Below, piece by piece: positions 3,834 to 43,580 of a stretch of 64,000 bases of DNA (the stretch's first letter is position 1; each line of letters starts with the position of its first letter). A program made the position numbers and the translations under genes. The stretch lies in assembly GCA_045604905.1 (NCBI GenBank), contig JAZUOX010000060.1, positions 22,386 to 86,385 of the forward strand, in the 5' to 3' direction. Source of the DNA: Clostridia bacterium. Its GTDB lineage: Bacteria; Bacillota; Clostridia; UMGS1883. The notes beneath the pieces are model-generated. The model was not told the DNA's origin. It ran no database searches and saw only the letters and a list, made by a program, of their open reading frames with translations.

Positions 3834-3847
3834 AATTTTGCCTCCTT

Positions 3848-5977: not shown

Positions 5978-5980
5978 CTC

Positions 5981-7141: not shown

Positions 7142-7142
7142 T

Positions 7143-15694: not shown

Positions 15695-15698
15695 TGTT

Positions 15699-19548: not shown

Positions 19549-20508
19549 TTAATTGACCTCTTTCATTTTATCCCACGAATATTTCCACTGATAGATTGCA
19601 TCAAGGTAATAGTACTTATTTTCCTCCATAGGTGCTTCCCAGCTGCCGCACATCAAAACACCGTTTATCTTATTTTCATCAAGCTTTTCACGGGCAAAAC
19701 GGATTGTCTGCTCCGCATTATAGTTGTTTTCGTTTGAAGCGGGCTGGAGCATAATATCAAAGCCTGCATTTGTAAGTGCCTCGAATGCACCGAGGCGGTT
19801 AAGCGACCAGGGATGTGTAGGCTTCGGATGTGCTTCATCAAAATAAAGAAGTCCGTAATGCCATGGGCATACAAGCACATCTTTAGGTACATTTGCGATA
19901 AATTCTTCGGGATAAGACCAATAGTAGTCAGCACCTATACAGGGGCGTACTCCCTTTTCGCGGACACAGTCGCAAAGGTAATTAACATCGTGCCAGATAA
20001 GGTCAAACTGACGGTAGCAGGCATAACGAAGCCTGCCCTGATTAAGTCCGTTTTCTTCATCAAGAACAAGTGACATAATTTCGGGAGTATCAAAGATATC
20101 GCAAACCTCGTGAATCAGTTCTTTTGCAACCTCGTAATACTTCTGTGTTGAAACCATTCTTGAATATTCACAAAGCCACACATCGTGCCCTGCGGAGAAG
20201 TTAAGACGGGGGTAAAATTTAAGCCCTTTTTCCTTGTAACGCCTTACTTCTTCTTGCATAAATTCGGGAGTCCAAGCACCCTCCACTGCAATTTCGGGAT
20301 GTGATTTATACTTAATTCCGTTTGCAAGGTCAATAATTACGCTGTCAAAGCCACACTGGAGTGCCTTGTCGCATATTTCACGGAATGTATTTACGTCTGC
20401 ACGAAGGACAGGCTGATACAAAACGCCTGTACACCACGGAATTTCTGCAGAATCATTCCAGCAGTTATCTGCAAGACATATAAGTAAACAGGTTCTGTCT
20501 GTAATCAT
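19549..20508 (-). CDS. Uncharacterised GH20-like TIM-barrel family protein, paralog 6 (group A)
   Basis: 319 aa. Motifs LADNCWNDS and LVLDEENGLNQ. Its stop abuts the start of paralog 5 with no spacer. Its start is 2 nt after the GH105 stop. Confidence 0.6.
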   Translation of the reverse strand: MITDRTCLLICLADNCWNDSAEIPWCTGVLYQPVLRADVNTFREICDKALQCGFDSVIIDLANGIKYKSHPEIAVEGAWTPEFMQEEVRRYKEKGLKFYPRLNFSAGHDVWLCEYSRMVSTQKYYEVAKELIHEVCDIFDTPEIMSLVLDEENGLNQGRLRYACYRQFDLIWHDVNYLCDCVREKGVRPCIGADYYWSYPEEFIANVPKDVLVCPWHYGLLYFDEAHPKPTHPWSLNRLGAFEALTNAGFDIMLQPASNENNYNAEQTIRFAREKLDENKINGVLMCGSWEAPMEENKYYYLDAIYQWKYSWDKMKEVN

Positions 20509-20510
20509 TT

Positions 20511-22598
20511 TTATTCTCCTAACATATTCATAACGGCTACACCTGCACCAAGAACTATACCTACGCCGTGGTCGTCATTTGTGATTGTACCAAGATCAAG
20601 GTAGTATTTTTCTTCCTTATTACAGCCTGAACCCTGACATACACCGTAAACGTTACCTTCACTGTCAACGCATTTTTCACAAAGGGCGTTCCACGCTTCA
20701 ACAACAGTGTCTTTGATATTTTCATCAAGCCAACCAAACTTTACGCCACGCGCAAGTGCAGTAATAAACATTGCACTGCCGCTTGTTTCAACATAACTGT
20801 CGTGATTGTTTATAACCTGATGCCAGATACCTTCATTTTTGTCACGACACTTAAGAACACCGCCTGCAAAATTGCGGAATATTTCCAGAATTCTTTCTCT
20901 GTCCTTATGACTTTCAGGCATAAGCATAAGAAGCTCACTCATAGCAAGGAGCACCCAACCGTTACCTCTGCCCCAGGGAACTCTGTTTGCAAATTCTTCC
21001 GGTGGGAAGAAAATGTGTGAGTATATGTTCTGATCGTGCATATACATTCTTTCCCAAAATCCGAAAATCTGTCTTGCAGCTTCGTCAAAATACTTTTCTT
21101 CGCTGAATATTGCACCAAGACGTGCAAGGAACGGAAGACACATATACATATCGTCTGTCCACATTGTCTTTCCGCGGTGGAATGTACCGTCGGGGAATCT
21201 TGGAACATTGGTCATCATTCTGTCAGCCATCAGTTCTATAAGACGTTTCGCATTATTGTCTCCTGATATAAGATAGTATTCGCAAAGAGTTATACCGAAT
21301 GTTCCGATAGAATCAAGGTTATTGAAGTTGGCAGATGAAGAAAGATATGATGAATATCCCGACACTCTATTATCGTGTGCTGCGTAATCACGGTGCTTTG
21401 AGATAGTCTTTCCGAAAGATATGTAGTAATCGTAAAAATCTCTAATATCAAGTTTTGCTGCAGTCTGCCTCATACCTTCTATACCTACCATAATGGCATA
21501 GAACCACTGTCCCCAGAAGCTTGTTTCAACGTTCTGGCGAAGATAGGTGCCCTTACGGTAGAAATTCCAGTAGCAGGTTTTTCCGCAGGCTGAAGGCATA
21601 GGCTCTGCAAAATCAAGCTTCATTTCAGGAACATAGGGGTAGCTGAAGGGATCTGTTTCTCTTCCGAAAGGTCCCGTCCATATCCACTGAAGGTCGGGAC
21701 AGGTATCACCTGTTACAAATGAAAGCTGCGATTCGCCGCCGGCAGTTGCGGTAAATCCCCATTCTTCTCCTTTTGCGCTCTTTATAAGAAGGTGTGTAAA
21801 ATCTTTAAATTCAGCCTCATACTTCCCTTTTTCTTCCGATGTGTAAAGGGTCTTTCCTTCGCTCATTATCTTGATAGGTGACTTATGCTCGATAACAAGC
21901 TTACCCTTATATTCTGTATATACATAAGCGGCTTTACCATCATTTTCACAAAGCGAGGCAAAGTCAAACTCTTTTACATTTGACTGCTCCGGCTTTACCG
22001 GGAAAACCCAGTCGATATTTTCAAATGTAGGCTCAAAAACTTCGTCCTTTTTATAAAGACGTGAATGTCTGATTACTGACTGCCCTTCAAAGCCGTCGTC
22101 ATCGATATACATTCTTGTGCAATAAACGTAGCTTCCTGCACCCATACGAAGTCCGGGAATGAGGATACGAATGGCACCTTCAAAACCATCTTCGTCCGCT
22201 ACGAGCTTTACTACAATACGGTTTTTACCCTTTTTGAAAAGGATATCCGCATCAACTGCAGGAATATTTCTGAAATCTCCTTTGTGAGTGGGAATTTTTT
22301 CACCGTTAAAGTACACTTCTGCATTTTTATTCTTAGCTATATTAATTATAAGCTCTCTATCATATGGACCGTCTGCATCAACGCTGATAAAAGCGTAGTC
22401 ACCTACCTCGTAAGAGGGAAAAATCTCGCTGAAATCAGGTCCCGCCTTATGAATAATATCCATTTCCTTGTAATAAGGGAACGGATGGTAATAAACCTCA
22501 CTCTTTCCTCTTGTTTCAAGCATATGATCATAGATTTTCCTTAAGACTTCTGCATTTGTAGACGCAACAGTTCTGATGGATTTCTCGCAGTATTTCAT
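20511..22598 (-). CDS. GH105-type unsaturated rhamnogalacturonyl/galacturonyl hydrolase with a ~330-aa N-terminal extension
   Basis: The C-terminal ~360 aa carry the WGRGNGW motif and (alpha/alpha)6-type signatures of the GH105/GH88 YteR family. There is no signal peptide. A GGAGG ribosome-binding site is present. Confidence 0.7.
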   Translation of the reverse strand: MKYCEKSIRTVASTNAEVLRKIYDHMLETRGKSEVYYHPFPYYKEMDIIHKAGPDFSEIFPSYEVGDYAFISVDADGPYDRELIINIAKNKNAEVYFNGEKIPTHKGDFRNIPAVDADILFKKGKNRIVVKLVADEDGFEGAIRILIPGLRMGAGSYVYCTRMYIDDDGFEGQSVIRHSRLYKKDEVFEPTFENIDWVFPVKPEQSNVKEFDFASLCENDGKAAYVYTEYKGKLVIEHKSPIKIMSEGKTLYTSEEKGKYEAEFKDFTHLLIKSAKGEEWGFTATAGGESQLSFVTGDTCPDLQWIWTGPFGRETDPFSYPYVPEMKLDFAEPMPSACGKTCYWNFYRKGTYLRQNVETSFWGQWFYAIMVGIEGMRQTAAKLDIRDFYDYYISFGKTISKHRDYAAHDNRVSGYSSYLSSSANFNNLDSIGTFGITLCEYYLISGDNNAKRLIELMADRMMTNVPRFPDGTFHRGKTMWTDDMYMCLPFLARLGAIFSEEKYFDEAARQIFGFWERMYMHDQNIYSHIFFPPEEFANRVPWGRGNGWVLLAMSELLMLMPESHKDRERILEIFRNFAGGVLKCRDKNEGIWHQVINNHDSYVETSGSAMFITALARGVKFGWLDENIKDTVVEAWNALCEKCVDSEGNVYGVCQGSGCNKEEKYYLDLGTITNDDHGVGIVLGAGVAVMNMLGE

Positions 22599-22727: not shown

Positions 22728-25700
22728 TTAATTAGTAAGTTCTGCCGTAACAGAAGCTATTTTTATATCTGAAGACCCATTGATTGTAAAATCAGTCTTT
22801 AAGCGTTCCATATTGTCAAGGCACGCACCTGCAATGTTAAGAGTAACTGTTTTAAGCGCCCCTGTTCCCGTACGGGGTATTTTTTCAGTATTCTTAACAA
22901 GGCGGTTTCTTGTTTCCCCAATTTCAAAAGTATAATAGGTAAAGTTAAAAGAGTCTGTACCCTCGTCAAGATAGGTGATTGTCACCTTTACATTGCCCTC
23001 CGGCTGATATGCGACTTCATTCTTGACATTTACACGCATAATGTTGCCTTCTGGAAGATTGTAAAGAGTCTTTCCATTGTGTGAAACTTCACTTACTTCA
23101 CTGTCACAGCCCGCATAGCTGAAACTGTCGCAGCTGTCTGAAAGGTCATACCATCCGCCATCAGGTGCATTTTCGATTATATCCGATACATCTGCCCATC
23201 CGATTCTTATAATCTTACCAGTTTCGTCATAGTGGCCGAACCACACCTTTGTACCGTCAATGTTAAATGCGGGATGACAGTGTCCGGGGTTAACGCCTGT
23301 CTGCTTTACTCTTGCAACAACGTGACTTACACCTGTGTAACAGTCAATAAGCACTATGTCTGAATATTCACCGTTGCTGTACCCTGTATCTGCTACTGCC
23401 CAGCGGTTACTTACGGGACTTGTTGCAACGTGGTTATATGCATAGTCACTGTTTATGTAATTACGTTCTGTTCCGTCATATTTAATGGAAACTATACCTG
23501 GATAACCGATTGCGGAACTACCCGAAGATTTATGGAACACAATATGCTCGCCGTCGTAGGACCACATTTCGTGACAGGCAATTTCCCCTGCAGATTTCGC
23601 TGAATAGAATCTTGGAACAAATACATTGTAGTATTCGTCAGTATCTGTATTAAGAACCCACAATCTGTCGTTTACGGAAGTACCTTCGTGACAAAACAGG
23701 AGAAGATTTGGCTTTACGGGGTTAATCGAAACGTGATTGGGGTCATACCATTCTGTATCAAATACATAGTTGTGGCTTAAATCCCACTCGCCCGTCTTAA
23801 GATCAAGAATCGGGAATCTTGACCCCTCTGAAAGGAGCTTATCGTTCCATTCCACGGAAAGCTTTTCCTCTGTATCCATTACCTGAAGCATTCCTGCATA
23901 GTCTGCATATTCTTCCGGAATGACACCCACAACCCTTTTCTCGTAAGTGTCAATATCCATACGGATAATTTCACTGTTGCGGTTAATGTAGAACAATCCG
24001 TTAAGAGGCGTTGTTACAACATTATGCTCACGCTCACATGTGTCAATATACTTTACACTGCTTGTATTTATATCATACTCATAAATTTTAAAGTTATCGT
24101 CGCGGACGAAGAACTTATTTCCATCTTTTGACCAGCCCTGCATAGTAAAGTAGCTTCTTATCATATTTTTGCCGTTAAAGTCTACCCAGTTATATGTCCT
24201 ACCTGAAATAGGACAAGTCATCTCTCCTGATATAACTTCACGGTTAAGCTCATTTTTAAAGCAAAGCTGTTCTATGTAAGGATGAGCAAAATTCTTGTCA
24301 AAAACATATACTTTGACAACCGAAAGTTCCGGATACGGCGACAGTTTGAAATCTTCGAATATAAGTTCTTCTGCAGTTGAGCTGTCTGTATCAAGGTCAA
24401 TTGACTTAAGCTTGATATTTGTCATTGTCGATCCTTGATATTCACAAACTGCAACGCTTACCTTCTTTACTTCTTCCGTCTGATTATAAAGACGGACATT
24501 TACATCAATACTTCCGTCAAGTGCTTCTTCAATAGCACCGATGATTCTTCCGTCTGATGAGAATATACTGTTTGAAACAACATCCCCTGCAGCTGTATAT
24601 GCGGCAAAATTATCAAATGAAAGCTGACCTGACTGTGTTCTGAAGTTTGTAAAACGAATATCCTCAACGTTATAAAGTGCCTGGTCTTTTCTTGTAACAC
24701 ACTCTAAAAGACCTATGGGAGCCTCGTTAATTTTCACCCCGTCAATAAAATAGTCTGCCGTCTGGGTTGCTGTATTAACCTCAATTCTGAGAGTGAACCA
24801 TTCATCAAGCACAGGAGCTGTATTCATAAGGTAAATGCTTCTTACTGTACCCTTATCATCCTGACGTCTTGCAAACATAAATTCACGGTAACCCTCGTAA
24901 TAGAAACAGCAGTCAACAATCTGTGCCCTTTCTTTTGTTCCGTCAGGCAAAAGATAGTTTCCGTACATATGGAAGAAATAATACTGTGGCGTATCTGAGT
25001 GATTAAATTTCAGGTCCGTTTCAAAAGCCACTTTGTGCTGAGATGTTGTAGGGAATTTGTACTGAATAAATTTCTGCGACCCGCTTGTGCCTTCACGCCA
25101 TGTATGCATAATGTGATTTTTGTTTTTATCGACTTCTAGCGCTGTTTTATAAAGTGCGTCACTGTATGTTGTTATTCCCATTTGAGAGTCAGTAATCTCA
25201 TGTATTCCCTTTCCTACACTTTCGGGATAATAGAAAGAATCTGAATAATACACTGCCTTATCTTTTGAAAGAACTCTGTACTCAAGTTCCTTGTCTATTG
25301 AAAACTCTTTTCCTTTTTGTGAAATCGATGCAGTAATTGTAACAGCGGTATCTTCTATAGGACGTTTTACAATACCCACGCCTTGCTCGCTGTCAATATC
25401 AATAACAGAAGGATTACTACTCTCAAAGGTGATTTCTACATCTGAAAAATCAATACCTGTAAGCTTTGCATAATTAAAATCAAGATTTTTTGTTACATGA
25501 TTTACGGACTCTGCCGTAAACACTTCCGGATTAAATCTCTTTGCAATGTTTGATATTTTGCTGTATTCTTCATCGCACAAAACAGTGTAAACAAGCTCTT
25601 TTGAAATTGACGCTCCATTCTTTTCAAGAGTAACGGTAAGCGTTACAGTTGAATCATACTTATCTCTTGTGACCGTGCCGTCTTCAGACAGAATATTGCT

Positions 25701-28025
25701 GTTACTTGATAAATAAGTTACTGTTATGTCATTATCAGAGATATATTCAGCCCATTTGTGATTTATTAAATCAAGGTCGGTGGTAATTAAATCTTTGTCT
25801 TCTGATGTAAAATCAGTTTCTTCAAGATTATTGTACAGATAGAATATTTCAGGATTTTCATTATACCACCGTGGGTTATCTGTAATACTTACATCATCTA
25901 TAAAAAGGTTTCCCTTGCCGTACTGACGGAATGTATTGAATTCAAAGTCGTTGTAGCCCATAAATTCTGTTCTGTCAACAGAGGGATTAAGAACATCGTT
26001 AAAATGAATGGGTTCACTGTTAACCTTTACATCATTTATGAAAAGGTCAAGAGTCAATGAGTCTTCGTAATATCTCCATTCAAAGTCTGCCCACTCGCCC
26101 ACTTCCGGCAAATAATCCTTTGAAAAATAAATTGTTTGGCTTTTTTCACCGTTATGAACGGGCATGTAAATGTTGTATGCACCGTTGGCTTCATATCGGA
26201 AGTTTGTTTCATTCAGCCATACACGTTTGTTTTCACCGTTCACCTTAAATATTCCGTATGTTCTGAACACATAAATCTGCGGTGCGTCAGCATGCTCAAA
26301 CTTCATACGCATGCGGTGAATAATGTCACCCTTTGGTTTTTCACCAAGAATGTAATAAGTGCTGTTGCCTTCCTCCATTCCTATAGGGCGATATGAATGA
26401 AGCAGATACTTCTCATCCTCCACATCAATATAGCTTTTAAATCTCTGCCCGGAAGTTGTGTCCTCGGAAAGCTGTGTTGCATATCTTGAAGACCAGCCGT
26501 ACGTTCCCGAAATCGGAGGTGTGACATTTGTTTCCGAACGTATTATTCCGGGAACATCGTAAAGTATCATTCCTTTGCCTTCGGGATAATAAAAGTTTTC
26601 CGACATATGTACCTTTGTAGTTTGTCTGAGAACTTTAAAGTAAAGTTTATTTGTCCAACTCTTTCCCTCGCCATTTACAGTTGCAGTAATTTCCACGGGG
26701 GTATCACGGTAAAGGTCACGGGTAACGTAGCCAGTATTTTCACTTATAATAATAGCGTCGCTATTACTTGCAAATGTTACGGTATAACCATCAGGAAGGA
26801 AATTCTCCGGATTAAGGTCAAGATTTTCTGTTATAACATCTCTTGGCTCGTTTGTAAGCATTTCTTCAGTTACATTAAAATGATCCAAGTCATTTTCTTT
26901 TATACTAGTTACAGATAAATCATCTATATATACTTTTCCGCCTGTAAATGTACGGAAAATGTTAAAGTCAATATCATTTATATCCACAAAATTCGCACGG
27001 TCTGCACCCTCTTTATCTCTTTCGTAGAAGGGTATGCTTTCCGTCGTTACTTTTGCGTCGTTTATGTACATATCCCAAATTTGGGCATCTGTGTCAATAA
27101 GCCATTCAATCTTTGCTTCTTCCCCAACCTTGGGCATATCTTCTTTTTTAACGTAAGCGGACTTAACTTCACTGCCGCTGTAATAGGACATATAGGTTGA
27201 GGATGCACCGTTTTGGTCATATTTATAGTTTATTTCAAAAATGCGTGCTCTTTCATAAGCGCTGTCTACATAATAATTACCGAAAGCACGGAATACGTAA
27301 ATCTGTGTGCCCGGTTCGTGATCAAATGTGACATCAGCCTTGACGGACACCTTGCCCGAAGGTTTGTCACCGAATACATAATGTAAAAAGTTATAGTCGC
27401 TGTCTACGGCAACATCACGGTATGCATTAAGGAAATAGTCACCGTTTACTTCATCTGTAATTGCTTTGAATCTGTTTGCCGCTACGCTGTCACCTTCAAG
27501 CTCTGTTGCAAAGGCGAATGCCCATCCCTCTTCTGTGTCTCTTGTAGGCGATGGTATAGTTTTACTTATTTTAAGAGATCTTTCCTCTGTGAAAAGTTTT
27601 CCTTTGTTATTAGGATAATAGAAATTCTCCGACATATGGGCTTTTGTTGTCTGTCTGAGAACTGTAAAATTAAGTTCTTTGGTAAAAACTTTGCTACCAT
27701 CACTTACTGTTGCTGTAAGTGTTACCGGTATATCATGGTAGAGGTTGCGCACAACATGCGCAACCTCACCATCAATTGCTATGGCGTTAGAGTTACTTTC
27801 AATGCTTACGCTGACACCTGCGGGAAGAATATCGCTTAAATCAAGGTCAAGATTCTTTGTTATTGCATCTGTAACCTCATTTGTGAGCATTTCTTCGCAA
27901 ATGAGTTCCGCAAAAGAAGCTGCATCACTGCCTGCTGTGTAGCCATCCATTGGCATACATCCGCATACAAGCACAAATGCACATATTATTGACATAATTC
28001 TTCTGTAAAGCTTTGAATGTAACAT
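22728..28025 (-). CDS. Giant secreted 1765-aa multi-module protein with a PL22 (oligogalacturonide lyase-like) beta-propeller domain
   Basis: Signal peptide. Four [Ig-like ~80 aa + ConA-like jelly-roll ~250 aa] modules. The C-terminal region carries the PL22 motifs LLLFCHEGTSVNDRLWVLN, CHEMWSYDGEH and NPGHCHPAFNIDGTKVWF. A terminal ~110-aa domain with the VTITYLDEG motif is shared with two other proteins in the cluster. Confidence 0.7.
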   Translation of the reverse strand: MLHSKLYRRIMSIICAFVLVCGCMPMDGYTAGSDAASFAELICEEMLTNEVTDAITKNLDLDLSDILPAGVSVSIESNSNAIAIDGEVAHVVRNLYHDIPVTLTATVSDGSKVFTKELNFTVLRQTTKAHMSENFYYPNNKGKLFTEERSLKISKTIPSPTRDTEEGWAFAFATELEGDSVAANRFKAITDEVNGDYFLNAYRDVAVDSDYNFLHYVFGDKPSGKVSVKADVTFDHEPGTQIYVFRAFGNYYVDSAYERARIFEINYKYDQNGASSTYMSYYSGSEVKSAYVKKEDMPKVGEEAKIEWLIDTDAQIWDMYINDAKVTTESIPFYERDKEGADRANFVDINDIDFNIFRTFTGGKVYIDDLSVTSIKENDLDHFNVTEEMLTNEPRDVITENLDLNPENFLPDGYTVTFASNSDAIIISENTGYVTRDLYRDTPVEITATVNGEGKSWTNKLYFKVLRQTTKVHMSENFYYPEGKGMILYDVPGIIRSETNVTPPISGTYGWSSRYATQLSEDTTSGQRFKSYIDVEDEKYLLHSYRPIGMEEGNSTYYILGEKPKGDIIHRMRMKFEHADAPQIYVFRTYGIFKVNGENKRVWLNETNFRYEANGAYNIYMPVHNGEKSQTIYFSKDYLPEVGEWADFEWRYYEDSLTLDLFINDVKVNSEPIHFNDVLNPSVDRTEFMGYNDFEFNTFRQYGKGNLFIDDVSITDNPRWYNENPEIFYLYNNLEETDFTSEDKDLITTDLDLINHKWAEYISDNDITVTYLSSNSNILSEDGTVTRDKYDSTVTLTVTLEKNGASISKELVYTVLCDEEYSKISNIAKRFNPEVFTAESVNHVTKNLDFNYAKLTGIDFSDVEITFESSNPSVIDIDSEQGVGIVKRPIEDTAVTITASISQKGKEFSIDKELEYRVLSKDKAVYYSDSFYYPESVGKGIHEITDSQMGITTYSDALYKTALEVDKNKNHIMHTWREGTSGSQKFIQYKFPTTSQHKVAFETDLKFNHSDTPQYYFFHMYGNYLLPDGTKERAQIVDCCFYYEGYREFMFARRQDDKGTVRSIYLMNTAPVLDEWFTLRIEVNTATQTADYFIDGVKINEAPIGLLECVTRKDQALYNVEDIRFTNFRTQSGQLSFDNFAAYTAAGDVVSNSIFSSDGRIIGAIEEALDGSIDVNVRLYNQTEEVKKVSVAVCEYQGSTMTNIKLKSIDLDTDSSTAEELIFEDFKLSPYPELSVVKVYVFDKNFAHPYIEQLCFKNELNREVISGEMTCPISGRTYNWVDFNGKNMIRSYFTMQGWSKDGNKFFVRDDNFKIYEYDINTSSVKYIDTCEREHNVVTTPLNGLFYINRNSEIIRMDIDTYEKRVVGVIPEEYADYAGMLQVMDTEEKLSVEWNDKLLSEGSRFPILDLKTGEWDLSHNYVFDTEWYDPNHVSINPVKPNLLLFCHEGTSVNDRLWVLNTDTDEYYNVFVPRFYSAKSAGEIACHEMWSYDGEHIVFHKSSGSSAIGYPGIVSIKYDGTERNYINSDYAYNHVATSPVSNRWAVADTGYSNGEYSDIVLIDCYTGVSHVVARVKQTGVNPGHCHPAFNIDGTKVWFGHYDETGKIIRIGWADVSDIIENAPDGGWYDLSDSCDSFSYAGCDSEVSEVSHNGKTLYNLPEGNIMRVNVKNEVAYQPEGNVKVTITYLDEGTDSFNFTYYTFEIGETRNRLVKNTEKIPRTGTGALKTVTLNIAGACLDNMERLKTDFTINGSSDIKIASVTAELTN

Positions 28026-28039: not shown

Positions 28040-30763
28040 TTATTTAATGACTACCACACAGTCATTGATATAACCTGAATATCTGTAAATATACATTGTC
28101 ACACCATTGTCAGTATATGTGTAGTCTCCGTTTTCATCAAGTGATGCACTTACGGGAACGTCCAGGTATGTGCCCTGTCTTACTTCCCAATTCACATAGT
28201 CAATGACTACCGGCTTTGGTCCGTTTCCTATTGTATGAGCTCTTACAGTTGCACCACGGTCTGTTGAAAGCACAACCGCTAAATCGTTTCTTGCATATAC
28301 ATGACCGTAGAATACGCCTTCACCCGTATCTTCGTTACCTGTTATTGACTGGAAAGGCGCTGCGTCGCTTGTTCTTACGCGCAACTGAGCTTCAATAATA
28401 TTGAAGTTCTCATCAACTTTGATTGCTGCAATATCACCGAATTTAAATCCACCCGGAACAACACTGTCGATAACACCGGGACGCTCTTCGCGGAATGTAT
28501 ATTCCTCATCCTTATATCTTCCTGTTACCATATAAATCTCTTCACCGTCAGCATTTGTACCTTTAACACTCTTTATTACAGTCATAGCCTTTGGAAGAAA
28601 ACCTGTACCGGATTGCGAAACAACTTCTACTGCACCTGTTGTCCAGAATTCATCTGCATCATACATTCTTACATTTGACCTTCTTGCAAGATCGTAAAGC
28701 TTTTCATGAGGAATTACCTTAATATAATTCTCGTCAAAGTTTTTATCTTCCGGAACAAGGAATATTGTTGTATTTTCATCCATACGGTACTTTCCGCTCA
28801 TAGAATTACGTTTTGCATTATAATATTCTGAGTAGCTTCCGCTGGGTGTTTTATATACAAGGCAGAATCTTGTGGGGTCAAAACCGGTTGTTTTCGTACA
28901 TATTTCAGCATCTGTGGTTGTTTCAATTTCTTTAAGCTCACCTATTGCGCTAAATTTTACTTTTACAATCTGTCTTCTGAAATCACCTGATGTATTTCCG
29001 TCAACATAGAGGTCTGTTTCTGCGAGTAGGTCTTCACTGTTTTTAGTTGTAACACCGTTTATTGTAATTTTCTTTGCTGTTGCAACTGTAGCGACATCAC
29101 CTGTGTTAAGGCAAAGCTTTATAAGACATCTGCTTGAAAGCTTTGCGTTTTTGTCTTTTCCGGCATCAAGGAAGTATGCATACTGGAACTGATCTTTGTA
29201 ATTTTCAACACCTGCGATCCTACCCTGGAAGTCAAGACGAAGCGTAACCTCTGATTCAAGCGCAGGTTTAACAAAACCTTTTATATTATTTTCAACATTT
29301 TTAATGAATGTTGCACTGTATTCGTAAGGTGTCTCAACCTCTTCACCTTCAACCATATGAGTTACAGTTATAATTTCCTCATCGTCTTCATTGGTTTCAA
29401 TACCTGAAACTCTGCAATCAACCTTGTCTTCTGAAACAATGATTTTAACTCTTGCGTCATCTTTACTTGCAAATACTGAAAGCACACTGTTGGATTTAAG
29501 AAGAGATATTGCTTTTGTTTCCCCAAGTGTTGTGAGGAATTCATACTTATCATATTCTCCGTACTTAATCTCGTTACCGTTACTGTCAGCAACAAGCTGG
29601 CTTGCCTGATTGTTTGTAAGAAGCAGATAGTTTTCAAACTCTTCAGCAATAACTACATCATAGGTACTGTCAAGGTCAACATCGACAAAAGTAAGTGTAC
29701 CTGATTCAATTTTCATATCATCCACAAGAAATGCCGGATAAGAACTTCCGTTGTATATAAAGTCAGCAAAAGGACTTACTTCCACATCTATTTTCTTATT
29801 TTTTACCGTATATACAACATTTGTTTTTGTGAAGTCAGGAGATTCAACATCTAGGTCTTCTGCTTTTACAGTAAGAACTTTGTTCCTTGCGTCATCTTTT
29901 ACTACATAGAGGAGCTTGTCTTCATCTGCATCGTAATACGCGATAACATTATAACCTACAAGTCCGTCTGTATTTACAGATTCGTTTACCAATTTCTTTT
30001 TGCCGATAATTGCAGTTTTTCCCGGATACACTGTTGAACCTTTAAGATTAGTGATACCGTCATCCATAAACTGTGCTCTCATCTTTTTTATGTTGTGATA
30101 TACATCGAGAACAGTTTTGCCTTCTGTCACAGCATATGTAATATACTTACCCTTAACAGCGAGAATATCCATTACCTCAACTTCACAAGCTTTGGCAAGC
30201 ATATTCACTATGTTATAACGTGTAAGATACTCAGTTCTTCCGGGACTGTTCAAAAGACCGAGATCAATTGCTACTGAATAGTAGCCGTTGGGGTACCCTC
30301 CTCTTGAATTTGCGATACCCTCATATCCAAGAACTGAAATTACAGTTTTTACAGCCTGGTCAAGTGTAACAAAATCATCCGGTCTGAATTTGCCGTCAGA
30401 TCCAACCATAAGATTGGCTACACCTACAGAGTAAATGTGCTCTCTGAACTGTGTTGATTCACCTACATCTTCATACTTGAGCTCTGCACTGAATGTTTTT
30501 TCATCAAGATCACAAAGTCTTGAAATTGCACTTGCAAATTCACCCCTTGTAACATTATTTATATGGTCTGTATTGGGAGAAACCCATATTCCCACTGCAG
30601 TAAGGAACTCAATGTTCTTTTTATAGGTTTCAATCTGTGCTTCTGTGTATTTTGATTCTTCGACAGGAGCTTCGGTTTCTTCTGCTGCAAATACTGAAAA
30701 TGCAGATGCAAACATAAGAATTGCCATAATAATTGAAATTGATTTTCTAAATATTTTATTCAT
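28040..30763 (-). CDS. Secreted 907-aa cell-surface protein with N-terminal SLH-like repeats
   Basis: Signal peptide MNKIFRKSISIIMAILMFASAFSVFA. Degenerate SLH-type segments (NVTRGEFASAISRL, FRPDDFVTLDQAVKTVISVLG). The large C-terminal region is unassigned. Confidence 0.55.
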   Translation of the reverse strand: MNKIFRKSISIIMAILMFASAFSVFAAEETEAPVEESKYTEAQIETYKKNIEFLTAVGIWVSPNTDHINNVTRGEFASAISRLCDLDEKTFSAELKYEDVGESTQFREHIYSVGVANLMVGSDGKFRPDDFVTLDQAVKTVISVLGYEGIANSRGGYPNGYYSVAIDLGLLNSPGRTEYLTRYNIVNMLAKACEVEVMDILAVKGKYITYAVTEGKTVLDVYHNIKKMRAQFMDDGITNLKGSTVYPGKTAIIGKKKLVNESVNTDGLVGYNVIAYYDADEDKLLYVVKDDARNKVLTVKAEDLDVESPDFTKTNVVYTVKNKKIDVEVSPFADFIYNGSSYPAFLVDDMKIESGTLTFVDVDLDSTYDVVIAEEFENYLLLTNNQASQLVADSNGNEIKYGEYDKYEFLTTLGETKAISLLKSNSVLSVFASKDDARVKIIVSEDKVDCRVSGIETNEDDEEIITVTHMVEGEEVETPYEYSATFIKNVENNIKGFVKPALESEVTLRLDFQGRIAGVENYKDQFQYAYFLDAGKDKNAKLSSRCLIKLCLNTGDVATVATAKKITINGVTTKNSEDLLAETDLYVDGNTSGDFRRQIVKVKFSAIGELKEIETTTDAEICTKTTGFDPTRFCLVYKTPSGSYSEYYNAKRNSMSGKYRMDENTTIFLVPEDKNFDENYIKVIPHEKLYDLARRSNVRMYDADEFWTTGAVEVVSQSGTGFLPKAMTVIKSVKGTNADGEEIYMVTGRYKDEEYTFREERPGVIDSVVPGGFKFGDIAAIKVDENFNIIEAQLRVRTSDAAPFQSITGNEDTGEGVFYGHVYARNDLAVVLSTDRGATVRAHTIGNGPKPVVIDYVNWEVRQGTYLDVPVSASLDENGDYTYTDNGVTMYIYRYSGYINDCVVVIK

Positions 30764-30782
30764 TATCTATCTCCCGCCTTTC

Positions 30783-32519
30783 TTAATATTTTAATAATCT
30801 GTAGATTAACTGCGCAGCCTGTGCTCGTGTGAGTTTTCCACCGGGCTGGAATTCAGTTTCTGTCATACCGGTTATTACTCCGGCCTTTGTAAGTGTTTCT
30901 ACACTTTCTTTTGCATAGTCAGCTATCGCAGCATCATCACTGAAAGTTTTTCCTGCACCTTCCTCAAGTTCAATGCCTTTGTATTCAATAACTCTGTCAA
31001 GCATTACAGCAGCATCCTGTCTAGTTATAGGCTGACCTATACCGAAAGTGAAATTATCCTGACCTTTTACAATGCCTTTTTCCTGCGCACTTGCAACATA
31101 AATGTTCGCCCAGTGTCCGAGAAGGTCTGTGTATATTGTAAGAGCTTCTTTATTGTAAAGGCCAAATGCCATTACATACATCTTTACAAATTCTTCTCTT
31201 GTAACATTTGCATCAGGATCATATCTGTTAGTAGCAACACCGTCAATTACACCGATACTATGGAGTTCATTTACTGCAGCAAATGCCCAGTGACCCTTTG
31301 GTACATCGTTAAATATGCCGCCTACAGGAGCTTCGGGAAGTATTGACATATTAGCATTTGAATTGTGAAGAGTATCTTCTACATCCCGTATCTCTGTTTT
31401 GTCATCTTTTACAGTAGCACCGCCACCGCCACCGCCGCCACCGCCACCGCCGGAGGAGGGTTTCTTGCCTGATTCCTTTTCTGCATTCTTTATAACTTCT
31501 TCAAATGCATCTGCAACTTCTTTTGAAAGAACAAAGTTTCTGCCAACAAATGTCTTGTTGATTTCTCCTGCGCCATACTTATCACAGGCTTCTTCATAGT
31601 CCTTTTTGTCAATACCGAAGTATTCGATATATTTTTCAACAGTAGTACCTACATTTGTCGCATTGAGCTTGTTGAAGTTTGCCATTGCGATACTCTGGAA
31701 AAGGTCGTCTTTTACATCACCGATAGTTTCAGGACTGCTATCCTTTGAGTTCTTGTAGAAAAGTTTATACACATCTTCTTTCTTTTCTGAATAGTCCCCA
31801 TCTTCCACATCGAGAGTAAGAAGAACACTTTCATCTTCACAAATTTCTTTGCATCTTTCTTCTGTTGTAGCTTCATTAAGGTCACGGATAAGCTGAACAC
31901 CTGAAAGAATATTCATAACTGTGCCCATATCATTACATTGGTTATCATAGTCTTCTTCACGGATATTAAGGAAAAGGTCACAAATTACATCTGTGTTCTC
32001 CGCAAAATCAGTTTTGTCGACTGAAAGCATATCTGCCTTTTCTGAAAGAAGTGCTTCTATTTCTGCACGATCTGCAGTTTCAATTGCAGGAAGTGTAACC
32101 TCATCTATATAAGTCTGGCTTTCAAAGTATATTTCCGTTGTATCCTTTGAAACTGCTGCTTTTGTACCATTACCGGAAGCAGCTATTACAATATAACCTG
32201 CAGGGTCATCCTCTGCGAGCTGTACTTCTTTTTCTACATATCCGCTGCCGTCTGTTTTAACCTCAAGCGCGCGCACAAAATCAGCGGGCGAAGATACCGC
32301 AGTTTCTTTTTCGTACATTACAATTGAAATTTTCTGCACATATTTTGCAGGGGTAGTAACCTGAATTGAAACTACTGATGTATCGTAGTTTACAGATGCG
32401 GTCACCTCAAACTCTGTTTCTGCCGAAACGCTAAAACACATCATTGAAAGTGTCATAGTGCATACAACAATCATACAGAGGATTTTTTTAACATTATTCA
32501 TATCTGTAACTCCTCCCAA
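30783..32519 (-). CDS. S-layer homology (3x SLH) cell-wall-anchored protein with a poly-Gly linker
   Basis: Signal peptide. A G12 linker. Three canonical C-terminal SLH domains (FNDVPKGHWAFAAVNELHSIGVIDG..., ...ITRQDAAVMLDRV..., ...LTRAQAAQLIYRLL). Confidence 0.8.
   Translation of the reverse strand: MGGVTDMNNVKKILCMIVVCTMTLSMMCFSVSAETEFEVTASVNYDTSVVSIQVTTPAKYVQKISIVMYEKETAVSSPADFVRALEVKTDGSGYVEKEVQLAEDDPAGYIVIAASGNGTKAAVSKDTTEIYFESQTYIDEVTLPAIETADRAEIEALLSEKADMLSVDKTDFAENTDVICDLFLNIREEDYDNQCNDMGTVMNILSGVQLIRDLNEATTEERCKEICEDESVLLTLDVEDGDYSEKKEDVYKLFYKNSKDSSPETIGDVKDDLFQSIAMANFNKLNATNVGTTVEKYIEYFGIDKKDYEEACDKYGAGEINKTFVGRNFVLSKEVADAFEEVIKNAEKESGKKPSSGGGGGGGGGGGATVKDDKTEIRDVEDTLHNSNANMSILPEAPVGGIFNDVPKGHWAFAAVNELHSIGVIDGVATNRYDPDANVTREEFVKMYVMAFGLYNKEALTIYTDLLGHWANIYVASAQEKGIVKGQDNFTFGIGQPITRQDAAVMLDRVIEYKGIELEEGAGKTFSDDAAIADYAKESVETLTKAGVITGMTETEFQPGGKLTRAQAAQLIYRLLKY
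31423..31452 (-). repeat. (GGN)n triplet microsatellite encoding the poly-Gly linker
   Basis: The plus strand reads caccgccaccgccaccgccgccaccgccaccgcc, and the repeat is in frame within the SLH protein. Slippage here would change only linker length. Confidence 0.6.
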
Positions 32520-32520
32520 A

Positions 32521-35427
32521 TCACTTAACTTCTTTTACGAATACATCGCGGATAAACGCCTTTGACTGAACACCGCTTAACTTAAAATCTGCACCAAGCT
32601 GATACATATTCTCGAGATTCATATGATGTATTGTAAGCTTTGCCGTTTTCCATTTACCTGTATTATTACGCTGAATATACTCTACTCTCGGACGGAGCTT
32701 ACCAATGCCTTCGTAATAGTAGTCGGGGTGATTTTTCTCACGTTTTGCGTAGGTACTGATGTTTTCCCATTCAAAATAATCAAGCCTTATTGGGAAATAA
32801 CCGTTGTCCAAATATTCAATCTCAATTTCTACTGAGGTTGATTCCTTTTCAAGGTAGTCGGTTTTAACCTTAACTTCCATATAGTTATTCTTGGGTATTT
32901 CGTAATATGTACCCTTATCATCCTTATGCTCAAGCATAAAGTGGTCTTCGCCCTCGTAACTATAGGTTGAGCAAGCTTCGTTAAGGTCAATCTGACCGCC
33001 GGGAGTGGGATTTTCTGTAATGTCGCCTACGTAAGCCCAGCCGACTTCAACAGTCTTATAGTCTTCACTCCAGAGACCGAAGAACGCAGTCTTTGCATCC
33101 CAGCTGAACTGCGGATGCGAATGTCCGGGGTTATTACCCTTTGTATGGTTTACAATAACTTTTGACCAGCCTGCCTCTGTATCCATAAGTACAAGCTTTG
33201 TAAAACCGTTTGCACTGTCGATACCAACGTCGGAAATAAGCCAGCGGTTGGAGTTAAGTGCTGTTGCACAGTGTGAATAATCGTAGTCACCGTTTACAAG
33301 GTAACGGTCCTTACCGTCCCAACGTGCAAAGTAAATACCTCTTTCTGTGGGAGTTTCTGTTTCAGCACCCCAGTTGTAACGGATTTCGTCGTGATGACCG
33401 TGTCCGCGGACTGTAAGAAGATACTCACCATCTGCAAGCCAGTATTCGTGAACACCTGTTTCACCTGTTCTTTCTGGTGAATACTTTTTCTGAGGGAAGC
33501 CTACCCATCTTTCACCTGTGTCAATATCCATAACCCATGTTCTGTCATTTACATGTGCACCCTCGTGACAATAGAACACAAGATTTTTCTTTACGGGGTT
33601 CTGACAAAGATGTCCGGGATAAGTATAGTCGGTTACAAAATCCTTTGAAAAATCAGGTATGAAAATATTTTTCCAGATATTATTTTCGATATCGTACTGA
33701 TGTATTGAACCGCCCTGGTCCCTTATTTCCCAATAGCGGGCATCACGTACACCAATTGTAAGTGCCGTTTCGTTAAAGTCAACCTGAAGCATTACACCTG
33801 TTGAAAGAGATATATCCTGATATGCATCGGGAAGGTGTACTACAACAGTTTCTTCATATGTGTCAAGATTAATCTTACAGATTCTTGAATACTGATCAAG
33901 ATACCACAGATTATTCTTTTTTGTCAGGCAGAAGAAATGCTCAATACCGGGTCTACCACTGCACATATACTTAACCATATAGGTTTTCATATTGTACTCA
34001 TATATGTTTGAGTTTTTATCACGGAAATAGAAGCGGGTATCATCATAGGATGTCATAGGCATCGTATAATAGTTCTTAATTGCGTTTTCTCCGAGAAGAT
34101 TAATTGTGTAATATGTTCTTCCTGTTTCGGGGTCGTAGTGTTCTTCCGGAGGCATATAGAATTCACCCATTAAAAGCCAGTTGATAAGGCTTGAGTCCCC
34201 TGTTTCTCTGAATGTATCAACTGTTACTCTGCCTGAATTGTAAAGGTCTGAAAGATAACACTTTTCTGTCTTTAAATTCTTTAACGGAAGCATATTGTTT
34301 GCAAATGCAACAAGATTATCCATCAGAACTTTCTTTGTAGGCTGGAATACCATATTACCAGAATTTATAAGATTAAGTCCAGCCACAACTGTAAGGGGAT
34401 TTGTCTTTACAGCCGGATCTTCAGAGCCCATAAATGCTGCGTACCACTCACAAAGTTCACTCTGTGGAAACATCTCTTTGGCGCCGAGGGTACCGCCTGT
34501 GTTCTTTATGATACCCAGGCTTTCTGCCATACCCACATAGGGTTTATATTCCAGAGATACATCAGTAAATGAGCAAGAAAGATTCTTTGTTTCAGCCTCT
34601 TCCTTAAGACCTGCAAACTGAATGATGTACTTAAGTGCTTCTTCCCTTGTAAGCTCTTTTCCGAGAATTGCATCTGCATTCTCTGCACTGTACTCATCGA
34701 AAAGTCCGAGTACTTTAAGAGAGTTAGCTGACTTTGAGTTAAAGAGGTCGAATGTTTCCTCACCTGCGTTACGGCTGAGGTTTGTAACCTCAATCTTTGA
34801 AAACGCGTTGTAACCACCGGTTACAATACGGATGTCTCCACCGTAGTCCATTGCCTGACGGAAGGATGCATCAGAAATGTAAAAGGTACATTCCCACCAC
34901 TTTGCTTTTTCATAACGTTCTTCCTCGGTACCGCCCTTGGGGTCACCCATTTTAAGAACGGAGATACGTCCGTAAGTATCGGTTGTGCCCGGAATGGTGT
35001 AGTCAAAATGAATATAACCTGCACCACCGAAGTCATAATAGTTAAACGTTATTTTATAGGTTGTATCTTCCGGAGAACAGAATGACGGATCAAAGCGAAG
35101 ATACATAATATTCTGATAATAAACTTTTCTTCCCACAATACCTTTAAGATTAATCTTTTCATTGTATGTAACGTCCGTGAGAGTTGTTTTGCCGAATCCG
35201 TCTTCAAATGACATCTGATTTTCCTGCGCAGTATCTGTGAAAATGATGTATGCGTTATTCTCATCAACAGGTGTCGTCTGCTTGATTTCTACCTGAGGCA
35301 TAATAACAGGATTTTCACGCACTACAACCGATGCCGCCTTTGCCTCGGGAGGAGCAACATTAACAACAGTTACTGCCATAATTACCGCCAGCAAGCATAG
35401 AAGACCTTTCTTGAATATTTTTTTCAT
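32521..35427 (-). CDS. Secreted 968-aa SLH-like-domain protein with a PL22 (oligogalacturonide lyase-like) beta-propeller and the shared C-terminal domain
   Basis: Signal peptide MKKIFKKGLLCLLAVIMAVTVVNVAPPEAKA. SLH-like segment (LTREEALKYIIQFAGL...FTDVSLEY). PL22 motifs VFYCHEGAHVNDRTWVMD, VHEYWLADGEY and NPGHSHPQFSWDAKTAFF. C-terminal IEIEYLDNG domain. Confidence 0.7.
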   Translation of the reverse strand: MKKIFKKGLLCLLAVIMAVTVVNVAPPEAKAASVVVRENPVIMPQVEIKQTTPVDENNAYIIFTDTAQENQMSFEDGFGKTTLTDVTYNEKINLKGIVGRKVYYQNIMYLRFDPSFCSPEDTTYKITFNYYDFGGAGYIHFDYTIPGTTDTYGRISVLKMGDPKGGTEEERYEKAKWWECTFYISDASFRQAMDYGGDIRIVTGGYNAFSKIEVTNLSRNAGEETFDLFNSKSANSLKVLGLFDEYSAENADAILGKELTREEALKYIIQFAGLKEEAETKNLSCSFTDVSLEYKPYVGMAESLGIIKNTGGTLGAKEMFPQSELCEWYAAFMGSEDPAVKTNPLTVVAGLNLINSGNMVFQPTKKVLMDNLVAFANNMLPLKNLKTEKCYLSDLYNSGRVTVDTFRETGDSSLINWLLMGEFYMPPEEHYDPETGRTYYTINLLGENAIKNYYTMPMTSYDDTRFYFRDKNSNIYEYNMKTYMVKYMCSGRPGIEHFFCLTKKNNLWYLDQYSRICKINLDTYEETVVVHLPDAYQDISLSTGVMLQVDFNETALTIGVRDARYWEIRDQGGSIHQYDIENNIWKNIFIPDFSKDFVTDYTYPGHLCQNPVKKNLVFYCHEGAHVNDRTWVMDIDTGERWVGFPQKKYSPERTGETGVHEYWLADGEYLLTVRGHGHHDEIRYNWGAETETPTERGIYFARWDGKDRYLVNGDYDYSHCATALNSNRWLISDVGIDSANGFTKLVLMDTEAGWSKVIVNHTKGNNPGHSHPQFSWDAKTAFFGLWSEDYKTVEVGWAYVGDITENPTPGGQIDLNEACSTYSYEGEDHFMLEHKDDKGTYYEIPKNNYMEVKVKTDYLEKESTSVEIEIEYLDNGYFPIRLDYFEWENISTYAKREKNHPDYYYEGIGKLRPRVEYIQRNNTGKWKTAKLTIHHMNLENMYQLGADFKLSGVQSKAFIRDVFVKEVK

Positions 35428-35441
35428 ATTTATCCTCCTTG

Positions 35442-37067
35442 TTATCTGGCGTCATAGAAACGGATAGATTTAACTCTGAGAGGCTGACCGTTTGTTGAAA
35501 TGATTATATCATCCGTAGAAATGGGAAGATTCTTACCAATTGCAAATTTCGCATCGGAAAGCTCAATTCTTGCAGTCTTCCATTCGCCACTGTTTGTAAG
35601 AGAATATGTAGCCTGAGAATTACCGGATGTACTCATATAGTCAAGAACGATATCTCCTTCCCCTTCGTCGAGGTATTCAATATCCACATTAACTCTTTTT
35701 ACTCCGTTAAGTCTTGTGTCGGTGATATCAAAATCAAATGATTCTGTCTCGTCAATTTCGATACATTCTTCTCCGTCTATCTCCACAACCTCTGCCTGGT
35801 CCATATAAAATACCACTTCACGGATTTCGGGAACATCTTTCATACGAAGACCTGAAGGATCACCGTCATAGTCGCTTCTTCTTGAAACGGCTACGTTTGA
35901 AACCTTAAGCCCGGGAGTGCCCTGCCAGAAACGGAAGTTACCCTGACCTGTACCGTTATCCATATAGTAGTGGAAGCCTGCATCTACAAGGCGAAAGCTT
36001 TCCGTCTTCCAAAGACCTGTACCTGTCTTTGTAAAGCTTGCGCTACCTGTTTTAAGAGTTGTTGCGGTTGAATCTTTTCTTGTGTATGAAATATCAACCT
36101 TTTCTGTATCCTCATCAAAGAATGTGATGTCGATAATCACTCTTTCATCATCTGCATTGATAAGTGCAGGATCAACCTTACAGGTGAAACGGCCAATAAG
36201 AGTTGCGCTGCCGCGAAGGTAATCGGGAGCTACACGGCACGCTCTGCCACCTGCTTCGGCATACTCTGTATAACCGTAACCCTGCTTACTTCCCGGTGTA
36301 GGTCCTGTAAGTTCGGGACGAGCTATTGGAAGCCAGAGCCATACGCCGTTTTCTGTAACTTCTGTTGTGTTATCCGGATCAGTTGTTGACATTTCGATAT
36401 TCGGAACATCTATGGTTGTTACATTGAATTCTGCTGCCTGGGATACAAGACCTTCTCCGTCTATTGCTTCGATAAGATAATTCTTCTGTGTGTTTTTATC
36501 AAGGTCTTCTTCAGCAAATGTTGTCTCATTACTTCCTGATGAAACAAGTATTCCGTCGCTGTATACATTATAAGATGTCACATCGTCAAAATCGTCATAC
36601 GCTGCATCCCATGTAATCTCAAGGTTTGAAGGCATATTCACACTGTCAACAACATTCTGAGGCGCTGCAGGCTCCATATTGTCAAGAGGTGTGCAAAGTG
36701 TAATGCCATCCCAGAGAAATACCTTGTACTCTTCTGTTGAAAGGTCTCCGACTGTAACACCTGCTTTAAGTGTATCACTTACAAGCGCACCGGAAAGTGT
36801 TACTGACTGCGAATCTGTCGCCTTTATCTTTCCGGTATCCTTGTCACACAGCATAACAATAAGCATCACACTCTGCGGTGAAGTGCCGTTAAGATTCGCT
36901 GTTACCTGAGTGTACACAAGACCTGACTGGATTTCAGGAATTTCGTTATCTCCTGCATCCAGATACTTAATATCTGTGAATTCCACTTTTGCGGCGGACG
37001 CCATTGCCACAGGCGCAAGTGAGAGCACCATTGCAAGGACCACCATGGTTGCCAATAGTTTTTTCAT
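35442..37067 (-). CDS. Secreted 541-aa FN3-domain surface protein with the shared C-terminal YLDEG domain; first gene of the operon
   Basis: Signal peptide MKKLLATMVVLAMVLSLAPVAMASA. FN3-like segment (APQNVVDSVNMPSNLEITWDAAYDD...). C-terminal VDIEYLDEGEGDIVLDY...NSGEWKTARIELSDAKF. Confidence 0.6.
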   Translation of the reverse strand: MKKLLATMVVLAMVLSLAPVAMASAAKVEFTDIKYLDAGDNEIPEIQSGLVYTQVTANLNGTSPQSVMLIVMLCDKDTGKIKATDSQSVTLSGALVSDTLKAGVTVGDLSTEEYKVFLWDGITLCTPLDNMEPAAPQNVVDSVNMPSNLEITWDAAYDDFDDVTSYNVYSDGILVSSGSNETTFAEEDLDKNTQKNYLIEAIDGEGLVSQAAEFNVTTIDVPNIEMSTTDPDNTTEVTENGVWLWLPIARPELTGPTPGSKQGYGYTEYAEAGGRACRVAPDYLRGSATLIGRFTCKVDPALINADDERVIIDITFFDEDTEKVDISYTRKDSTATTLKTGSASFTKTGTGLWKTESFRLVDAGFHYYMDNGTGQGNFRFWQGTPGLKVSNVAVSRRSDYDGDPSGLRMKDVPEIREVVFYMDQAEVVEIDGEECIEIDETESFDFDITDTRLNGVKRVNVDIEYLDEGEGDIVLDYMSTSGNSQATYSLTNSGEWKTARIELSDAKFAIGKNLPISTDDIIISTNGQPLRVKSIRFYDAR

Positions 37068-38693: not shown

Positions 38694-38739
38694 CAAAAAA
38701 AATGCACATTTGAGTATAAGTCTCAAATGTGCATTTTTT
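38694..38739. terminator. Bidirectional intrinsic terminator between the regulator (+) and the dppA-like gene (-)
   Basis: Perfect 18-bp inverted repeat aaaaaatgcacatttgag / ctcaaatgtgcatttttt with a 7-nt loop. It is flanked by an A-run upstream and a T-run downstream. Confidence 0.7.
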
Positions 38740-39538: not shown

Positions 39539-39614
39539 AATAAACAATCCTTTCAAAATAAATTTATATTGCAAAAAGTCCACTGTTGTGTTACTATTCT
39601 CATAGGGTGATTTT

Positions 39615-43579: not shown

Positions 43580-43580
43580 A

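Follow-up and report, generated by a model that had tools for sequence, protein, structure and literature searches.

The closest described relatives of the protein studied here are the oligogalacturonate lyases (OGLs) of polysaccharide lyase family 22 (PL22), represented by YeOGL from Yersinia enterocolitica (PDB 3PE7) and VPA0088 (VpOGL) from Vibrio parahaemolyticus (PDB 3C5M). In the literature, PL22 enzymes are small, are located in the cytoplasm, and complete the breakdown of pectin, and the family is treated as a cytoplasmic digalacturonate lyase (e.g., PMC11322527). Here, we analyzed a 64,000-nucleotide stretch of a Clostridia bacterium genome (GenBank assembly GCA_045604905.1, contig JAZUOX010000060.1, positions 22,386 to 86,385), referred to as the window, in which an open reading frame (ORF) at 22728-28025 on the minus strand encodes a 1765-aa protein—hereafter the giant—with a PL22-like β-propeller. 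We consider it probable that the giant is a secreted, multimodular, metal-dependent, β-eliminating uronate lyase, built on a deeply divergent PL22-like propeller and acting most likely on a β-glucuronate-containing glycan instead of oligogalacturonides. Compared to the OGLs, to which it is ~18% identical, the giant is far longer (1765 aa with a signal-peptide-like N terminus, against ~390 aa and a cytoplasmic location; PMC11322527), comprises nine structural units where PL22 typically has a single domain, adds Ig, lectin-like, and C-terminal β-sandwich domains to the propeller, and belongs to a Gram-positive gut Clostridia host instead of enterobacteria or vibrios. Its genomic context also differs, featuring GH88 and glucuronate catabolism where OGLs are accompanied by pectin and 2-keto-3-deoxygluconate (KDG) genes, and Gln350 of the OGLs is replaced by Asn in the giant and mostly by His in its clade.

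22728..28025, minus strand: ORF of the giant, uninterrupted, ATG start, 1765 aa
23151..24239, minus strand: seven-bladed β-propeller, PL22-like predicted catalytic domain, residues 1263-1625 (AlphaFold2 model and profile alignment)

A phmmer search of the whole giant against PDB sequences returned only the two OGLs (E 4e-8 and 1e-7), and a profile built from seven propellers of the giant's clade covers nearly the whole YeOGL chain 3pe7 (residues 33-368; E 4.9e-21). The Pfam model of the family, PF14583 (Pectate_lyase22), scores 36.1 bits on the giant against a gathering cut-off of 30, with a match confined to profile positions 35-255 of 386, and 25.6 bits, under the cut-off, on a 968-aa paralogue encoded three genes upstream; 22 of 44 sampled clade members reach E<=1e-3 with this model, while an orthologue 74% identical to the giant (P0008) fails. 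When the AlphaFold2 model of residues 1140-1765 was compared to solved structures, the top Foldseek match was VpOGL (3c5m; E 1.9e-18, template-modelling [TM] score 0.72), with other propellers at E>=6e-10, so the predicted seven-bladed fold is nearest to the solved OGL structures. Judged by sequence comparison and predicted structure, the C-terminal region is a homologue, though a distant one, of the PL22 oligogalacturonate lyases, and the PL22-like propeller called in the initial annotation thus proved right, as a remote relative whose Pfam match is above the cut-off but partial.

The alignments also place the putative active site. In YeOGL, we take R217 and H242 to be the catalytic pair, with H242 as the proposed base, and H287, Q350, H353, and H355 to be the Mn2+ ligands, roles that were reportedly established by Abbott, Gilbert and Boraston (J Biol Chem, 2010). 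The counterparts in the giant, with their conservation counted over 123 full-length clade propellers, are as follows.

23664..23666, minus strand: R1454 (in DRLW), counterpart of YeOGL R217 by alignment, kept in 122/123
23571..23573, minus strand: H1485 (in CHEMW), counterpart by alignment of YeOGL H242, the proposed catalytic base, kept in 123/123
23430..23432, minus strand: H1532, counterpart by alignment of the third metal-binding His, YeOGL H287, kept in 119/123
23274..23291, minus strand: N1579-P-G-H1582-C-H1584, counterpart of the YeOGL metal motif Q350-x-x-H353-x-H355 (profile alignment, translation check)

The catalytic His and Arg expected of a PL22 enzyme are therefore both found, with H1485 and R1454 aligning with H242 and R217. 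H1584 (YeOGL H355) is kept in all 123 members, position 1582 (YeOGL H353) is H in 88 and Q in 29, and position 1579 (YeOGL Q350) is H in 73, N in 24, S in 11, D in 6, and Q in 3. Four positions (R1454, H1485, H1532, and H1584) are thus kept in 119-123 of the 123 propellers, and the two others stay within residue types that bind metal (H/N/S/D at 1579; H/Q at 1582), a pattern that argues for the lyase reading. The three motifs quoted in the initial annotation, LLLFCHEGTSVNDRLWVLN, CHEMW, and NPGHCHPAFNIDGTKVWF, are all present in the giant, and the Yersinia motifs set beside them match the actual 3PE7 sequence. The predicted metal site contains all three His (H1532, H1582, and H1584), and only the Gln of the His/Gln set named in that annotation is missing, its place being taken by Asn1579, a residue type able to bind metal.

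If the giant works like Yersinia OGL, a divalent metal held by H1532, H1582, H1584, and N1579 would bind the uronate carboxylate, R1454 would aid charge neutralization, and H1485 would take the C5 proton, upon which the O4-linked glycan would depart and leave a 4,5-unsaturated uronate at the new nonreducing end. The three modules of an Ig and a lectin-like domain described below, together with the flanking β-sandwiches, would probably serve as glycan-binding units and spacers and may allow the enzyme to process an extracellular polymer or large oligosaccharide, beside the products of a cotranscribed surface cassette. The cell would then take up the unsaturated products, leaving the neighboring cytoplasmic GH88 to trim them and UxuB and UxuA to process the uronate.

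Much of the argument for this chemistry and for its substrate comes from the genes around the giant:

20511..22598, minus strand: GH88 unsaturated glucuronyl hydrolase, 695 aa, no signal peptide, directly downstream of the giant (Pfam GH88, E 2.4e-63)
1186-2031, minus strand: D-mannonate oxidoreductase (454 bits against a cut-off of 281)
2053-2775, minus strand: α/β-hydrolase
2796-3833, minus strand: UxuA
3848-5977, minus strand: 709-aa protein (p709) with a weak GH20b-like N-terminal domain
5981-7198, minus strand: CE15 glucuronoyl esterase, no signal peptide

The substrate of GH88 enzymes is a 4,5-unsaturated uronate made by a lyase. A giant-type gene is paired with GH88 in eight related loci (L006-L008, L018, and L010-L013 in our numbering), four of which (L010-L013) lack the surface cassette, and because GH88 requires the unsaturated uronate that a lyase makes, this pairing offers the strongest indirect support for a lyase reaction. 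Tight operon spacing likewise favors the main reading. The presence of the glucuronate-specific GH88, UxuA, D-mannonate oxidoreductase, and CE15 and the absence from the 64-kb window of any pectin-associated gene (PL1, PL9, CE8, GH28, GH105, UxaA, and UxaB) suggest that the locus deals with glucuronate, not galacturonate. A GH2 is also encoded in the window. The genes from D-mannonate oxidoreductase to CE15 form a cytoplasmic glucuronate-related cluster spanning 1186-7198 on the minus strand. As to the hydrolase itself, its GH88 domain occupies residues 359-692 of the 695-aa protein and leaves an N-terminal region of ~350 residues unassigned; this long form is kept (62-93% identical) beside giant-type genes in related metagenome-assembled genomes (MAGs), and L003 has a plain 362-aa GH88.

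This context bears directly on the substrate proposed in the initial annotation, according to which the giant is an extracellular PL22 enzyme cutting oligogalacturonides or fragments of pectin on the cell surface. That proposal draws on the fact that the only characterized relatives are oligogalacturonate lyases with the same catalytic residues as the giant, and the unsaturated products of galacturonic and glucuronic acid are chemically identical. Yet a window with glucuronate genes in place of pectin-associated ones does not back it and speaks against the PL22 activity on di- and trigalacturonate (EC 4.2.2.6); the giant stands at the edge of the Pfam model, with the low identity to OGL given above; and its three lectin-like modules suit polymer binding better than the turnover of di- and trisaccharides. 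We regard an oligogalacturonide substrate as distinctly unlikely.

Further parallels to a glucuronate substrate exist among lyases of other families. The PL24 and PL25 ulvan lyases and the PL42 L-Rha-α-1,4-GlcA lyase (PMC8377490) are likewise propeller lyases active on glucuronate-containing glycans and provide a functional analogy for the substrate class that we propose. None of the three families appeared among the top 50-60 structural matches listed for the giant, and no sequence link to them was found. To our knowledge, they do not use the three-His metal site of PL22.

The remainder of the giant is made up of a signal-peptide-like N terminus and a series of β-rich domains:

27936..28025, minus strand: signal-peptide-like N terminus (Sec type), residues 1-30, MLHSKLYRRIMSIICAFVLVCGCMPMDGYTA followed by GS (heuristic hydropathy and pattern reading)
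26886..27929, minus strand: module M1, residues 33-380, aBig_2 plus ConA/lectin-like jelly roll (Pfam, self-BLAST, and module hidden Markov model [HMM], E 1e-182)
25854..26885, minus strand: module M2, residues 381-724, aBig_2 plus ConA/lectin-like jelly roll (self-BLAST, module HMM, AlphaFold2, and Foldseek)
25566..25829, minus strand: lone aBig_2 without a jelly roll, residues 733-820 (Pfam and module HMM)
24588..25565, minus strand: module M3, residues 821-1146, aBig_2 plus divergent ConA-like jelly roll (self-comparison and module HMM)
24240..24587, minus strand: Ig-like β-sandwich preceding the propeller, residues 1147-1262 (AlphaFold2 model m1d56a398b296, strands at model residues 5-115)
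22728..23150, minus strand: C-terminal β-sandwich of ~140 aa, residues 1626-1765 plus stop codon (AlphaFold2 strands at model residues 506-624)

By heuristic criteria, the N terminus resembles a Sec-type signal peptide, as had been claimed before: it has a basic n-region (K5, R8, and R9), a hydrophobic core at residues 10-24, a hydropathy of 1.78 across residues 6-24, and an AxA-like pattern with a putative cleavage site between YTA and GS. P0008, an orthologue, and almost every long family member share this signal-peptide-like pattern. A lipoprotein reading was rejected, as the CGC motif does not match the canonical lipobox.

Pfam detects four aBig_2 (PF20578) stretches in the giant (95.4 bits against a cut-off of 27; E 1.7e-27). 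The four Ig-like domains announced in the initial annotation are thus all present, but self-comparison and the module HMM recover three full modules and a lone aBig_2 instead of four Ig-plus-jelly-roll repeats. In the lone aBig_2, the best Pfam stretch is 763-816, and the module HMM aligns at model positions 11-93 only; the M3 jelly roll is 20-25% identical to those of M1 and M2. The fold assigned to the module, Ig plus ConA/LamG-like, is borne out by structure prediction. The AlphaFold2 model of M2 (m311561758412), built from a 19-sequence alignment of modules assembled from clade members that an exhaustive search had retrieved, reaches a predicted local distance difference test (pLDDT) score of 90.7 and a predicted template-modelling (pTM) score of 0.90. 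Its best Foldseek match is to the accessory domains of the GH43 arabinanase AbnA (5ho0; E 3e-9), followed by legume lectins, Emp46/47p, CBM66, calreticulin, and galectin-like YesU-type proteins (E 1e-6 to 1e-4), with LamG-like domains also among the matches. On the strength of this model, the repeated module is an Ig domain joined to a jelly roll of the ConA/lectin-like fold. At the sequence level, no Pfam model matches the jelly-roll family of the giant, and the M2 jelly roll alone had no homologue in a word-indexed search of 5.8 billion proteins. The module HMM finds one to three copies of the aBig_2-plus-jelly-roll module in many clade members, and the four orthologues of the giant (1764-1776 aa) repeat its layout.

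The β-sandwiches that flank the propeller are shared as well, with the preceding Ig-like one also found in P0001, P0002, P0009, and P0010 and the C-terminal one accompanying the propeller in most of the clade, since most long matches extend to query positions ~500-512 of 515; the latter also aligns with the C terminus of the 968-aa paralogue. Among proteins with a comparable architecture, AbnA from Geobacillus stearothermophilus (PDB 5HO0) and other secreted Firmicute carbohydrate-active enzymes (CAZymes) with aBig_2 and β-sandwich domains are, like the giant, secreted multidomain proteins, and the AbnA type acts on polysaccharides, as we predict for the giant. However, the catalytic domain of AbnA is an unrelated five-bladed GH43 hydrolase, and the giant repeats the module three times. 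A related module is found elsewhere in the window, in a secreted 966-aa protein (11076-13976, minus strand) whose N-terminal aBig_2 plus ConA-like module is 26% identical to M1 and whose remaining ~600 residues have no detectable family.

The abundance of lectin-like and Ig-like modules, the cotranscription with an SLH protein and with p907 (a weak S-layer-protein match), and the circumstance that its lyase activity is deduced from sequence would also suit a noncatalytic surface protein—an adhesin, glycan-capture, or S-layer-associated protein—in which the propeller only binds its ligand. Binding-only descendants of enzymes usually lose their catalytic residues, whereas here these residues are near-invariant over 123 diverged members and the propeller is the part of the giant under the strongest purifying selection. 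We consider such a binding-only role very unlikely.

The giant is a real, conserved protein under purifying selection. The single 1765-aa ORF given in the initial annotation runs without interruption from its ATG, a Shine-Dalgarno-like sequence (GGGGTG) lies upstream, and the stop codon of the preceding gene is 14 nt away. Intact orthologues occur in four MAG loci (1764-1776 aa) with unchanged neighbor genes, and in comparison to these, the ratio of nonsynonymous to synonymous substitution rates (dN/dS; Nei-Gojobori) is 0.11-0.13 overall and lowest in the propeller (0.04-0.08). Pseudogene and chance-ORF readings were rejected on a dN/dS of 0.12 and the four intact orthologues. An exact-sequence look-up of the giant gave no matching record, no NCBIfam model matched the giant or the 968-aa paralogue, and a scan for promoters and terminators gave signals at chance level only. 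The window has ~40% G+C and encodes SpoVT and other Firmicute genes.

The giant is not a one-off protein. An exhaustive HMMER search with residues 1251-1765 against 1.84 billion representatives yielded 353 cluster representatives (50% identity) that match its propeller region at E<=1e-3, 83 of them at E<=1e-30. Most listed matches are 0.9 to 1.75 kaa long, and the matched region of the long ones mostly runs on through the C-terminal β-sandwich; among the first 70 representatives, nearly all long ones have signal-peptide-like N termini, which are missing from the short members of ~350-390 aa (single-domain or fragmentary, e.g., P0044 and P0068). All 20 genome loci recovered come from MAGs of uncultured gut Clostridia/Oscillospiraceae of human and animal guts, with at least seven clade genes in each of the two best-sampled MAGs and propellers 93-94% identical to that of the giant in L006 and L018. 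As far as sequence comparison can tell, the giant thus belongs to a sizeable clade of unannotated, secreted, and multimodular proteins at the edge of PL22. No source that we consulted names its proteins, and the literature searched describes neither a secreted or multimodular PL22 nor the four-gene cassette presented below; a preprint mentioning PL22-like propellers concerns viral proteins without sequence similarity to the giant. The claim that this architecture had not been described holds for the literature we searched, but with 353 representatives the architecture is common in sequence space. We see the clade as an uncharacterized variant of a known enzyme kind and possibly as a new PL subfamily or family.

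Several points weigh against the assignment as a glucuronate-directed lyase. The Pfam PL22 match of the giant is marginal and partial, and the AlphaFold2 model of the catalytic region, built from a nine-sequence alignment, is moderately confident (pLDDT 72.9). The canonical Gln metal ligand is replaced, by Asn in the giant and mostly by His across the clade, and the catalytic roles in YeOGL to which we align the site are ones that we presume. Lyase activity is something we infer for every member of the clade, and the proposed substrate has the gene neighborhood as its sole source, in a window where no sugar transporter was found. The signal peptide was called by heuristics alone, and the giant itself has no cell-wall anchor in the form of an SLH domain, dockerin, or sortase signal.

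Some of these points would fit a propeller whose metal/His/Arg site runs a different reaction—hydrolysis, epimerization, or de-esterification—on a sugar acid or another anionic substrate. The great distance of the clade from characterized PL22 enzymes, the changed metal ligand, the half of the sampled members that fail the PL22 model, and the many unknown neighbors (eight ~318-aa paralogues, p709, and a DUF4838 protein) all leave room for such a change. Against it stand the catalytic base, the Arg, and the metal positions, all of which are retained, and the repeated adjacency of GH88, which is hard to explain without a lyase, and we judge a different reaction unlikely. If the giant is indeed an active lyase, the PL22 fold would extend to extracellular polymer degradation, probably with a new substrate, and hundreds of "hypothetical" gut proteins, about half of which, judging by the sample, are missed by current Pfam models, would gain an annotation. 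In contrast to the small cytoplasmic enzyme known from the literature, the giant belongs to a large, unnamed sister clade that has kept the PL22 catalytic machinery while being, to judge by its N termini, secreted, as well as multimodular and tied to GH88 and glucuronate catabolism. We see no evidence of a new principle, and the giant offers a well-defined target for expression and substrate screening.

The most novel element of the locus lies outside 22728-28025, in a recurrent SLH cassette directly upstream:

28040..37067, minus strand: four-gene secreted cassette upstream of the giant (gene order; gaps of 1-19 nt)
35442-37067, minus strand: p541, secreted, cassette gene 1
32521..35427, minus strand: 968-aa secreted paralogue with propeller and C-terminal domain, 35% identical to residues 1272-1750 of the giant
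30783-32519, minus strand: 578-aa secreted protein with three SLH domains, cassette gene 3
28040-30763, minus strand: p907, secreted, cassette gene 4, weak S-layer-protein match

Gut MAGs and metagenome contigs show this gene order at 13 or more distinct loci, with at least five copies per genome; beyond the window, the cassette is found in L001, L003, L009, L014-L017, and L019-L025. Within the recurrent cassette, the 968-aa paralogue is the central lyase-like gene, and SLH domains were found in the ~580-aa protein of the window copy and of L003/L004. Known domains are missing from p541, p907, and the bulk of the SLH protein, with the exception of an FN3 domain and a weak S-layer-like stretch; when p907, p541, and a 318-aa paralogue were searched against PDB sequences, the matches were weak throughout (an S-layer protein fragment, an FN3 domain, and GH20). 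The fifth gene of the cassette varies: the window, L003, L006-L009, L018, and L020 have a giant-type lyase there, and the other loci an aBig_2-module protein; proteins similar to the 966-aa one described above take this place in L019 and L022.

Cell-surface CAZyme systems anchored by SLH domains are known from Monoglobus pectinilyticus, Paenibacillus, and Caldicellulosiruptor. The giant locus resembles them in encoding secreted enzymes and an SLH protein together, in gut fibre- or glycan-degrading Clostridia, but differs in that SLH domains are carried by the separate 578-aa protein and the enzymes have neither SLH domains nor dockerins or sortase signals. We tentatively speculate—with less confidence than we place in the uronate lyase itself—that the clade is a new polysaccharide-lyase family or subfamily acting on a polymeric, glucuronate-containing host, dietary, or microbial glycan, and that its 968-aa form could be the catalytic core of an undescribed, multicopy, SLH-anchored surface apparatus of four proteins (p541, the propeller lyase, the SLH protein, and p907) in gut Oscillospiraceae, a Gram-positive counterpart of the polysaccharide-utilization locus to which variable fifth-gene enzymes such as the giant are added. 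Given active enzymes, the cassette would be a candidate glycan-foraging system in these uncultured bacteria. The metal identity, the extracellular action on a polymer, and the link between giant and cassette, as well as lyase activity and substrate, enter this picture as predictions.

The window also contains eight cytoplasmic paralogues of ~318 aa (34-67% identical to each other), all on the minus strand, which belong to an uncharacterized family (10010-10972, 15699-16652, 16672-17628, 17631-18590, 18592-19548, 19549-20508, 42629-43657, and 43581-44759). Immediately downstream of GH88, five of them follow one another in tandem, an arrangement kept in L006-L008, and L012 and L013 encode more distant relatives (33-39% identical) upstream of their giant-type genes. 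The family has 156 homologue clusters, all unnamed or "hypothetical," with no Pfam family and no hint of a substrate, and it shows weak matches to GH20 catalytic domains only (Pfam, E 3e-4; PDB 8bal, E 2e-4). The last two paralogues stand beside a 667-aa DUF4838 protein with a GH20b-like N terminus (40597-42600, minus strand), and this region and the first may work as two parts of one catabolic system. Between both parts lie an RR-AraC gene (37399-38604), an M55 D-aminopeptidase gene (38738-39583), and an AraC gene (39615-40421). A GNAT_C-domain ORF (14894-15826) overlaps the upstream 317-aa paralogue (15699-16652) by 128 nt when read from its listed TTG start; its true start is probably further downstream, with the orthologues in L007 and L008 measuring 266-283 aa.

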